Assembly (NCBI GenBank): GCA_000004695.1 | Contig: CM000150.2 | Span: 608,001 to 672,000, forward strand | Source: Dictyostelium discoideum | Taxonomy: Eukaryota | Length of the DNA stretch: 64,000 nucleotides | Direction of reading: 5' to 3' | Part shown: in pieces, positions 17,985 through 20,219 of the stretch | Position numbering within the stretch: the stretch's first letter is position 1 | Layout: every line of letters starts with the position of its first letter | The notes under the pieces: model-generated | What the model was told of the DNA's origin: nothing | Seen by the model: only the letters and a program-made list of their open reading frames with translations | Database searches by the model: none | Position numbers and translations under genes: made by a program

Positions 17985-18830
17985 TTAAATGATTTTAAAT
18001 TCATTCTCTAATTTTTTTACTTCAACTAATATGGTGTTTAATTCTTGTCTTAACTTTTCAAATTTTAAAAGGATTGTTTTTGTTTCTGATAGAAATAATT
18101 GTTTTGAAGAAATTTTTGAAAGATTTTGAAAATCTTGGTAGATTATTGACCAAATATTTTTTACATTTTCAATGAAATTTATATTGGAATTATTATTTTT
18201 TTTAATTTGTTTTAAATTTTTGACTACAATTTGAATATTTTCAATGAAAATTTCTTTTTCATTTTTTTCATTTTTTAATTGACTTAAATAGAATTGGTTG
18301 CCTCTAATAAAAAATGGATAAAGTATAGACTTTATACATTTTTTATTTTCTTCTTTCTCAATTGAATTTATCTCTAATTGAATTTTAAAAATTTGATTTT
18401 TGATACAACTTTTTTCATTTTTAATCAATGATATTGCTTTTACTAATGATTCATTAAATTCTTTATTAATTTCAAAGGTTTCATTACTACAAGAAATCAA
18501 AAGGTTAACACTATTTGAAATTGAATCCAATGAAATATTTTTATTCAATAAAACATTTTCTAAACTATTTGATTCCTCTTCAACAGCTTCAATAATTCCT
18601 TTCATACCAGCAATTAATGAATTTGTTTCTCTACTTTTAAACTTGAAGGTATCAAACAATGAAAAAAAGTTATAACCAACTTTTAAAAATTTCAATTTTA
18701 GTACATTACAAATAGTTTGACATTTTAAATTTTCTGATAAACTTAATGATAAATTTAATAACTTTAAACTCTCAATGATATTAATGAAATCAATAGTTTC
18801 TTTATTTTTAAATTGTTCAATAATGTCCAT
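17985..18830 (-). CDS. Hypothetical coiled-coil-like protein (281 aa), paralog of the gene at 19395..20219
   Basis: Single ORF starting MDIIEQFK. It shares blocks with the divergent neighbour (NLSLSLSEN vs NLSLSREIE; KVGYNFFS vs KVVVYFSN; SILYPFFIRGNQF..EIFIENIQ vs SVFLFFFGDNKK..EIFIQKTQ). Confidence 0.55.
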   Translation of the reverse strand: MDIIEQFKNKETIDFINIIESLKLLNLSLSLSENLKCQTICNVLKLKFLKVGYNFFSLFDTFKFKSRETNSLIAGMKGIIEAVEEESNSLENVLLNKNISLDSISNSVNLLISCSNETFEINKEFNESLVKAISLIKNEKSCIKNQIFKIQLEINSIEKEENKKCIKSILYPFFIRGNQFYLSQLKNEKNEKEIFIENIQIVVKNLKQIKKNNNSNINFIENVKNIWSIIYQDFQNLSKISSKQLFLSETKTILLKFEKLRQELNTILVEVKKLENEFKII

Positions 18831-18942
18831 TTTTTTATTTTTTGGTTATGTTTAATTTAATTATTAATGACTAAATTTTTTTTTTTTTTAATTCCAACCA
18901 AAAAAAAATTTATGAAAATAAAAATATTAAAAATTACCATTT

Positions 18943-19085
18943 ATGTATTAATCACTTTTTTTTCCAAGTCAAGCTTAAAAATAATTGTTTTTTCTCAATT
19001 TTTTAAGTTAAAAAATTTAAATTTTTAAGTCTTTTTTTTTTTTTTTTTTTGATTCCAAATTTAGATAAATAATAAAAATAATAAA

Positions 19086-19119
<34 letters not shown>

Positions 19120-19328
19120 TAATAATAATAATAATAATAACAATAATAATTATAATAATAATTATAATAATAATATGTATTAATCACTTTTTTTTCTAAG
19201 TCAAGCTTAAAAATAATTTTTTTTTCTCAATTTATTAATTTAAAAAATTTTAAATTATTAAGTTTTTTTTTTTTTTTTTTTTTTTAATCCCAAAATAAAT
19301 TAGGATAAATAATAAAAATAATTAATAA

Positions 19329-19369
<41 letters not shown>

Positions 19370-19394
19370 GTATTTTAATATTGATAATAATAAA
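18943..19394. repeat. Tandem duplication: two copies of a roughly 232-bp unit (18943..19174 and 19175..~19394), each ending in an (AAT)n run, in the intergenic region between the divergent paralogs
   Basis: Both copies begin atgtattaatcactttttttt then c(c/t)aagtcaagcttaaaaataat.., followed by ttttttctcaattt..ttaaaaaatt..tttaagt, a T-run, ataaataataaaaataat and an (aat)n run. Identity is roughly 90% with small indels. Confidence 0.8.
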
Positions 19395-20219
19395 ATGAAT
19401 GAAAAACATCAAATTATGCAAACTGAGAAAAATGACGGACAAAATATAACTGAATTAGATTTTAGTGGCTATCCAATCGAAAAGGAAATTAAAGGTTTTA
19501 TCCATTATTTTCTTATTCTCGTAAATAAAAATCTTTCTCTTTCCCGTGAAATTGAAATGGTTAAAAAAAACTCATTGAGTGATCTAGAATCAATGAAAAG
19601 TTTTTACAATACAAATTTTGGAAAGGGCAATTCAGATTTAATGTCAAAAGTAGTTGTATACTTCTCAAATAAAATAGCACAAAGATCAAATAATGTAATC
19701 TCAGGTTATGTTGATCTTGAAAAAGAAGCCAAAGAATTATTGGAAAAACTAAATAAATTAGGAATTGAAGCATCTGTCGGAAAAACAGAAACCCTCGATT
19801 CTAAAAAAAAACTAGAGATTTTAAAAAACAAAAAAGAATATTTACAAAATGAAGTAAAAAAATCAAAAGGTTTTTTTCGTTCTGTTTTTCTTTTTTTTTT
19901 TGGAGACAATAAAAAAAATGAATTTTCAGAAAAAATTTGTTCAATTGAAAAAGAAATGGAAAAAATTAATGAAAATATGAAAGAATCAGAAATGGAAATA
20001 TTTATTCAAAAAACACAAAATTTAATGAATTGTTTAACATATGCCACCCATTATATCTTAGATATTAAATCAAATTTTCATATTATGAAATTAATCAACC
20101 ATGAATTATTAAATAATGATTTTTCTCTTTGTTGTCAAGATAAAGAATTAATGAATGGCATTTACTCTAAAACTAAAGATCTTTTGACAAACTCTAACCT
20201 TAAATCACTTGGCCAATAA
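19395..20219 (+). CDS. Hypothetical coiled-coil-like protein (274 aa), paralog of 17985..18830
   Basis: ATG at 19395 (MNEKHQIMQ), single exon. Shared sequence blocks with the divergently transcribed upstream gene, as listed there. Confidence 0.55.
   Translation: MNEKHQIMQTEKNDGQNITELDFSGYPIEKEIKGFIHYFLILVNKNLSLSREIEMVKKNSLSDLESMKSFYNTNFGKGNSDLMSKVVVYFSNKIAQRSNNVISGYVDLEKEAKELLEKLNKLGIEASVGKTETLDSKKKLEILKNKKEYLQNEVKKSKGFFRSVFLFFFGDNKKNEFSEKICSIEKEMEKINENMKESEMEIFIQKTQNLMNCLTYATHYILDIKSNFHIMKLINHELLNNDFSLCCQDKELMNGIYSKTKDLLTNSNLKSLGQ

Follow-up and report, generated by a model that had tools for sequence, protein, structure and literature searches.

A conserved divergent orphan gene pair of Dictyostelium discoideum and the tandem duplication of a promoter-like segment in its spacer

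A short spacer between two divergently transcribed genes of Dictyostelium discoideum contains a tandem repeat, and the locus raises two questions: what was duplicated, and are the two genes themselves duplicates of one another? The genes lie within a 64-kb stretch of AX4 chromosome 1 (the window; G+C 14–34% across its length). Gene A (17985..18830, leftwards transcribed, minus strand, 281 amino acids [aa]) is an exact match to DDB_G0267702 (Q55GE8) and gene B (19395..20219, plus strand, 274 aa) an exact match to DDB_G0268318 (Q55GE7). Both are annotated as hypothetical proteins, and neither identifier is mentioned in any paper of the searchable literature. The two start codons are separated by 564 bp (18831..19394) with a G+C content of 8.9%. 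The original prediction, made from the sequence, described A and B as paralogs derived by inverted duplication and sharing a promoter region with two copies of a 232-bp unit; its open reading frame (ORF) coordinates and lengths and its spacer boundaries are correct, the spacer being exactly 564 bp.

The spacer holds a genuine local tandem duplication, far beyond what chance would give. Copy 1 (18942..19173, plus strand) is 232 bp long and copy 2 (19174..19394, plus strand) is 221 bp long and ends at the ATG of B; together they form a direct repeat with a period of 232 bp. Copy 1 consists, in order, of a conserved block (TATGTATTAATCAC...AAGTCAAGCTT...CTCAATTTTTTAAGTTAAAAAA), a T19 tract, GATTCCAAA and an (AAT)n run. 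The ungapped core (18942–19050 versus 19174–19282) is 90% identical, a gapped alignment of the full units (232 versus 221 nt) has 200 matches and 17 mismatches, and 125 of 136 aligned positions (~92%) match when only the non-microsatellite core is considered. The local score of one copy against the other is 111.5, compared with 30.8±3.7 (maximum 43.5) for 1000 shuffles; among 175 further AT-rich segments of 150 nt taken from the window, none aligns with the unit at a score above 42.5. The predicted pair of ~90%-identical copies is thus well founded, and so is the description of each as ending in an (AAT)n run with copy 2 abutting the plus-strand ATG. The microsatellite closing copy 1 (19068..19175) has ~36 units with the copy 1/copy 2 junction at its 3′ end, and the (AAT)n-rich run closing copy 2 (19308..19393) has ~29 units and is followed by a conserved AGTATTTTAATATTGAT block just before the ATG.

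A 44-mer from the core (allowing ≤3 mismatches) occurs in the 64-kb window only in the two copies, with 0 expected, and orthologous positions aside there is no third copy in the window or in 15 related loci fetched for comparison; within this searched sequence the repeat is local rather than interspersed, as had been proposed. The entire spacer, including its homopolymer and microsatellite lengths, is base-for-base the same in a second D. discoideum assembly (GCA_054883475.1), and because that assembly is independent the repeat is no assembly artefact. The junction reads (AAT)n|TATGTATT, with microhomology to the original left boundary of at most 1–2 nt. An Rfam search over 17600–20500 (E up to 1) reveals no RNA family and a scan of the window no transfer RNA (tRNA) genes, so that the unit is not a known RNA gene.

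The duplication can be placed by comparison with four related assemblies, GCA_054859205.1 (L012), GCA_054859235.1 (L013), GCA_054859025.1 (L014) and GCA_054859325.1 (L015). On the 3′ side of B is a leftwards-transcribed ORF of 2475 aa (20403..27830, minus strand) coding for a Roco-type kinase, with COR and kinase domains seen in its orthologues, that we take to be roco7. Its C-terminal 1365 aa are 97%, 96%, 91% and 95% identical to D. discoideum in L012, L013, L014 and L015 respectively, 67% in D. purpureum and 58% in Polysphondylium violaceum. In each of the L012–L015 loci roco7 is followed downstream by an A-type gene that has a head-to-head B-type neighbour, so that the divergent pairing is a conserved feature predating the spacer duplication. 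Searches of the 27-kb roco7 loci from D. purpureum and P. violaceum detect neither gene.

The closest relative, L012, has a 308-bp spacer containing one unit, and is colinear with D. discoideum from the ATG of A through copy 1 and its (AAT)n run to the ATG of B. The left flank ATTACCATTT is common to L012 and copy 1 and is not present at copy 2, and since the flank of copy 1 is colinear with that of the single L012 unit, copy 1 occupies the ancestral position. The two D. discoideum copies are 90% alike and are 77% and 74% identical to the L012 unit. The single L012 unit and the closer identity between the copies indicate that the duplication arose in the D. discoideum lineage after the split from L012; loss of one unit in L012 is a less parsimonious alternative, with L013 likewise lacking the 232-bp duplication. 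The duplication had been called recent, and this stands in the sense that it is specific to the D. discoideum lineage, but, with the copies ~8–10% diverged, it is not especially young on an absolute scale.

The L013 locus has its own, more complicated history. Its best match to the D. discoideum unit is 81% identical over 113 nt (101 bits; background ≤60 bits) and sits 68–180 nt upstream of a second B copy, the upstream neighbour of which is another B gene and not A. This block is flanked by ATTACCAT on one side and by an AGTATTT(T)AAT...ATAATAATAAA-ATG tail on the other. The second B copy (7595–8119, minus strand) is internally deleted, encodes 174 aa and lies downstream of the full B gene with its own promoter-like block at 8187–8298; the whole spacer and B have been duplicated together to give spacer-B1-spacer-like-B2 in tandem. 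The A–B1 spacer contains a separate 61-bp tandem duplication (~9700–9825; CCTTAATTTTTTGAGTCAAGATTGAAATTAATTATTT.CCTTAATTTTTTAAA.TTTTAAC, two copies), which includes a GAGTCAAGATTGAAA block homologous to AAGTCAAGCTTAAAAA of D. discoideum. Because their boundaries differ, the duplications in L013 and D. discoideum are taken as independent events, and L013 suggests that the A/B spacer region is generally duplication-prone. True copies of the unit in the related assemblies score 101–182 bits against a background of ≤60 bits, and the homologous block is confined there to the orthologous location in front of B-type genes.

Both genes carry apparent lesions in L012. L012 B (8775–9614) is split over three reading frames with an A26 run in its N-terminal part, and L012 A has TAA as its second codon (9932–9937) on reading of the printed sequence, the gene model using a later ATG and being joined to the downstream carrier gene to give 508 aa. 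The alternatives are decay of A and B into pseudogenes and assembly errors at homopolymers. It is in this relative, with its frameshifted B, that the unit shows its lowest conservation (72–77%), which, as a single case, fits a constraint tied to a working B gene.

In Dictyostelium, sense-strand poly-T tracts end ~2 bp upstream of transcription starts, a TATAAA(A/T)(A/T) box lies ~29 bp upstream of the start, and sense-strand poly-A tracts start just past transcript ends (Chang et al. 2012, PMC3371697). All three of the spacer poly-T tracts of at least 14 nt are on the sense strand of B, with a similar (A/G)AT(T/C)CCAA after each. The T19 tract of copy 1 (19032..19050, plus strand) predicts a distal B start near 19052, and the T23 tract of copy 2 (19263..19285, plus strand) a proximal start near 19287 with a leader of ~108 nt. 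The third, a T14 tract (18876..18889, plus strand) followed by AATTCCAACC, is not part of the duplicated DNA and has been conserved in both of the closest relatives; on the strand of A it is an A14 tract within the probable 5′ leader of that gene. The sense strand of A has only a T9 tract (18900..18908, minus strand), also outside the duplication and 70–78 nt upstream of the ATG of A, which is a candidate marker of its transcription start. L012 and L013 have retained the block preceding the poly-T in front of their B-type genes, and in L013 it accompanies a B copy that lacks an adjacent A. Given the poly-T in each unit and the conservation of this block upstream of B-type genes, the unit can be read as a promoter-proximal module of B, and a repeated B promoter module is plausible by analogy with known Dictyostelium architecture. 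Rather than being shared by the pair in any real sense, it resembles a promoter belonging to B. An AGTCAAG motif in the conserved block was considered as a specific transcription-factor site and dropped, as it is not conserved in the nearest relative.

The explanation that we favour, with a probability of roughly 0.65, is that A and B are a conserved divergent orphan pair, not detectably paralogous, in which a promoter-like segment of B was duplicated head-to-tail in the D. discoideum lineage to give two tandem modules. The duplicated segment would be the DNA immediately upstream of B in the shared spacer, made up of an upstream conserved block, a long poly-T in the sense orientation of B and an AAT-microsatellite leader. 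Since an (AAT)n run ends at the new junction, the duplication most likely arose through slippage during replication or through unequal exchange within AT-rich DNA of low complexity. The outcome would be two tandem core-promoter-like modules for B with the predicted starts near 19052 and 19287, while the promoter of A, probably at ~18890–18940, would remain unduplicated.

Several observations weigh against this explanation. The proposal of a promoter module agrees with the layout of the poly-T tracts and with the position of the block before B-type genes, but there is no exact match to a canonical TATAAA(A/T)(A/T) box on either strand of the spacer, and a relaxed match, TAAAAAAT, is 43–46 bp before the predicted starts and not at ~29 bp. 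Poly-T tracts and AAT runs are common in DNA of 9% G+C, and the duplication could be selectively neutral. The search for further copies of the unit covered the 64-kb window and the 15 related loci. Unit number is unreadable in the Logan short-read contigs (L002–L009) of a divergent D. discoideum-like strain (SRR26869256) with A 98.6% and B 94.6% identical to AX4, as these contigs end on both sides in homopolymer or microsatellite runs, breaking at the T19 tract or the AAT run.

The same features could therefore be accounted for by a neutral, slippage-driven expansion of an AT-rich low-complexity spacer in which the poly-T is incidental and there is no regulatory consequence, and this we consider possible but on the unlikely side. 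It draws on the 8.9% G+C content, the AAT microsatellites flanking the junction, the lack of a canonical TATA box, and the signs of a duplication-prone region in L013 (the unrelated 61-bp duplication and that of the spacer with B); moreover, poly-T tract length is uncorrelated with transcript abundance in Dictyostelium (PMC3371697). Set against it is the core block, with 81% identity over 113 nt to L013, where the A and B proteins are only 51–54% identical and synonymous divergence (dS) is 0.38–0.51. The degree of conservation relative to these values suggests that the block is under constraint, and both D. discoideum copies keep the block and a long poly-T intact despite ~8–10% divergence. 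The units could alternatively be the remnant of a larger tandem duplication of the promoter together with B, from which the upstream B copy was later deleted. The spacer-B1-spacer-like-B2 order of L013, with a unit-like block upstream of B2, shows that B-including duplications occur at this locus. However, the (AAT)n run of copy 1 is joined directly to the opening base of copy 2, leaving no trace of B coding or 3′ sequence between them, the D. discoideum unit starts at TATGTATT while the L013 segment also takes in a AAAATTACCAT flank and sequence nearer to A, and the closest relative, L012, has one unit and one B; a remnant of this kind is very improbable. An origin of the 232-bp unit from a repeat interspersed throughout the genome or from a mobile element is scarcely credible. 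There are only two copies in 64 kb, adjacent and head-to-tail, the homologous block in the relatives is confined to the region upstream of B-type genes at scores well separated from background, and the unit has no nearby tRNA genes, no Rfam family, no terminal repeats and no ORF.

The duplication is in itself an ordinary event. Its value is as a clean, datable example of an AT-rich Dictyostelium spacer gaining a second promoter-like module, and the sister species with one and two units offer a natural comparison for what a poly-T promoter module does. Further interest comes from the conserved, fast-evolving divergent orphan pair and from the predicted ClyA-like fold of A.

The second question, whether A and B are paralogs, receives a different answer from that first proposed. 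BLASTP of A against B gives a best E of 1.1, and the Smith-Waterman score of 65 is indistinguishable from that of shuffled sequences (65.8±10.9; z=−0.07), with 493 of 1000 shuffles reaching 65 and the reversed sequence scoring 77. In tblastn searches of the 64-kb window each protein finds only its own gene, a phmmer search with A over 1.84 billion representatives retrieves four A orthologues and not B, and at the DNA level A and B show no sign of an inverted repeat. Alignment of the A-family and B-family profiles with hhalign (A 47–131 to B 38–121) has a probability of 1.4% (P=0.037, score 21.8). Column and block shuffles exceed this score in 0 to 2 of 120 cases (P ~0.01–0.02), but this was rejected as evidence of homology, the reversed B profile scoring 24.3; because the reversed profile beats the real one, the signal is treated as amphipathic-helix periodicity. 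The ordered blocks that the two proteins had been said to share are thus not recovered, and pairwise alignment against shuffled controls, the test named beforehand as able to refute paralogy, came out against an inverted duplication. A and B are not detectably paralogous by any of these sequence tests.

Gene A is a fast-evolving orphan that, as judged by the available searches, is restricted to close relatives of D. discoideum. A word-indexed search finds no relatives of A or B beyond D. discoideum, and the HMMER scan with A (1.84 billion representatives) returns four homologues at 74, 51, 37 and 32% identity. Pfam searches with five A-family members at E up to 10 give no toxin family and no ClyA-family or HBL-type match; A itself has nothing at E up to 1 with a weak coiled-coil match only at looser E, and across all members of the A and B families there is nothing but sporadic coiled-coil noise below threshold. 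When both families are used as profiles against PDB sequences there is likewise no toxin or other meaningful match.

Structure prediction is more informative. An AlphaFold2 model of A built on a six-sequence family alignment has a predicted local distance difference test (pLDDT) score of 86 and a predicted template-modelling (pTM) score of 0.80; the alignment was needed, as the single sequence gives an unusable model (pLDDT 40). The modelled protein is an elongated helical bundle with two ~70-residue helices (90–164 and 172–238) and a C-terminal helix (243–280). The two long helices are joined by a short hydrophobic tip (165–171; LYPFFIR) that coincides with the top hydropathy peak of D. discoideum A and has a pLDDT of 59–68; the tip is 7–14 residues long, is variable among orthologues and is deleted in one relative. 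In a Foldseek search of the PDB all of the top 50 matches are alpha-pore-forming toxins of the ClyA superfamily, the best being AhlC (E=4.7e-5; template-modelling score 0.55–0.58), with XaxA, MakE, Hbl-B, YaxA, XaxB, SmhB, ClyA, Cry6Aa and NheA among the later matches. A is therefore confidently predicted, from the model, to have a ClyA-family alpha-helical toxin-like fold. The searchable literature contains no report of Dictyostelium-encoded ClyA-like proteins.

Gene B has a central aromatic patch, GFFxSxFxFF (residues 159–170; GFFRSVFLFFFG in D. discoideum), that is conserved in four other B-type genes and lies at a relative position matching the hydropathy peak of A (0.60). The patch bears on the gene model. 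Both genes had been described as single-exon, which agrees with the AX4 models of A and B and disagrees with the annotation of GCA_054883475.1, in which B is 254 aa long; the 20 missing residues correspond in length to removal of an in-frame 60-nt GT...AG stretch (19870..19929, plus strand), a deduction from the length. This stretch encodes the GFF...FFF patch and, because the patch is conserved across species, is in all likelihood translated rather than spliced out. Sequence comparison thus favours the unspliced model of 274 aa, and the 254-aa splice is probably an annotation error.

These features bear on whether A and B nonetheless share a distant ancestor, as an inverted duplication around a bidirectional promoter would imply. 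The failure of sequence comparison leaves room for common ancestry because ClyA-family components, commonly encoded by adjacent same-fold genes, can share as little as 6–9% identity with counterparts from another toxin system (PMC6602965). The predicted ClyA-family fold of A points in this direction, as do the similar lengths (281 and 274 aa) and K/N/E/I/L-rich compositions of the D. discoideum proteins and their strongest hydropathy peaks, at relative position 0.60 in both (residue 170 of 281 in A and 165 of 274 in B). The hhalign match is roughly in register with these peaks (offset 9 versus 5) and is rarely exceeded by shuffles, five assemblies retain the head-to-head arrangement, and the divergence rates of A and B run in parallel. 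Against this are the uniformly negative BLASTP, Smith-Waterman, tblastn and phmmer results, the hhalign probability of 1.4% with its higher-scoring reversed control, and the lack of an inverted-repeat signal in the DNA. Taken together, paralogy by inverted duplication is unlikely.

A bolder reading, based on the structural model and doubtful enough to be treated as speculation, is that A and B constitute a eukaryotic two-component ClyA-type membrane-attacking system, a social-amoeba counterpart of YaxAB/XaxAB that is confined to the D. discoideum species group and shaped by arms-race evolution. If so, its role could be in killing prey or competitors, in defence or in cell death. Doubling of the B promoter, duplication of B in L013 and decay of A and B in L012 would then be dosage and turnover events typical of such systems, and the paralogy of the original prediction would be correct at the level of fold though invisible in sequence.

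Whatever their function, both genes evolve rapidly. In pairwise comparisons with D. discoideum across L012–L015, A is 72, 51, 35 and 31% identical and B about 60, 53, 33 and 30% identical. Nei-Gojobori ratios of non-synonymous to synonymous change (dN/dS) are 0.44–0.84 for A and 0.58–1.29 for B, compared with 0.09–0.11 for roco7; by this sequence measure A and B evolve roughly four to ten times faster than roco7 in non-synonymous relative to synonymous change. The divergent strain represented by short reads has 13 non-synonymous and 2 synonymous codon changes in B plus a 6-nt indel, and 4 non-synonymous and 2 synonymous changes in A.

Beyond the 3′ end of A is a leftwards-transcribed mitochondrial-carrier gene (ATG at 17684, minus strand; Pfam Mito_carr 31.8 bits, cut-off 22.3), and a rhodanese gene comes next. 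A C-rich box, CCCCCCACCCCCC (GGGGGGTGGGGGG on the plus strand), is present on the minus strand at 17761–17773 in surrounding DNA of ~10% G+C, ~65 nt upstream of a T25 tract (17700–17725) that directly precedes the carrier ATG; its sequence is reminiscent of the G-box/CA-rich elements to which the Dictyostelium factor GBF binds. In P. violaceum (L011, 17583–17970) a Mito_carr gene is situated 387 bp after the roco7 orthologue with no A or B between them. Insertion of A and B between roco7 and the carrier gene was considered and is only suggestive, as tblastn gave no link between the two carrier genes. Elsewhere in the window, the strongest asymmetry in strand composition is at 34001–36000 (AT skew +0.29, GC skew −0.25).

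Among known systems, the closest comparison for the repeated unit is the Dictyostelium core promoter (PMC3371697; Kimmel and Firtel 1983, as cited there). Each unit has a long sense-strand poly-T (T19 or T23) upstream of the ATG of B, as expected of such promoters, with a similar (A/G)AT(T/C)CCAAA sequence after it; the spacer differs in having no canonical TATA box, in that the B starts are predictions, and in that tandem modules for one gene are atypical. The locus also resembles divergent gene pairs served by a bidirectional promoter, with start codons 564 bp apart on opposite strands in an arrangement conserved across the five assemblies, but the duplicated part faces only B and in L013 goes with a B copy that lacks A. 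As a gene pair, A and B may be likened to the allorecognition genes tgrB1 and tgrC1, which we take to be a comparable fast-evolving and lineage-restricted pair of social amoebae. Like these, A and B are adjacent, divergent and evolve far faster than their neighbours, with copy number that varies and decay in some relatives; they differ in lacking both transmembrane and immunoglobulin-like domains and in bearing no resemblance to the Tgr proteins.

The ClyA family provides the comparison at the level of protein fold. Its toxins have one, two or three components (ClyA, YaxAB/XaxAB/PaxAB, AhlABC, NheABC, Hbl, MakABE and Cry6Aa), and the multi-component systems often consist of two or three adjacent components of the same fold, which were first recognised from hydropathy pattern and adjacency (PMC6602965). 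Members are under 20–24% identical to one another, and identity can be only 6–9% between a component and its counterparts in another toxin system (PMC6602965). A and B differ from these toxins in having a eukaryotic host, in being divergently transcribed and not in an operon, and in the absence of sequence membership for A in Pfam or PDB sequence searches. The 7–14-residue tip of A appears too short for a membrane-spanning hairpin and is poorly conserved, and neither protein has an obviously hydrophobic N-terminal leader on reading of the sequences rather than by use of a predictor. The likenesses are that A is modelled as an elongated helical bundle in which two ~70-residue helices are joined by a hydrophobic tip, and that beside it is B, of similar size and with a central hydrophobic patch. 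If membrane-active, the pair would add an alpha-helical pore-former family to the antibacterial or competitive repertoire of the amoeba.

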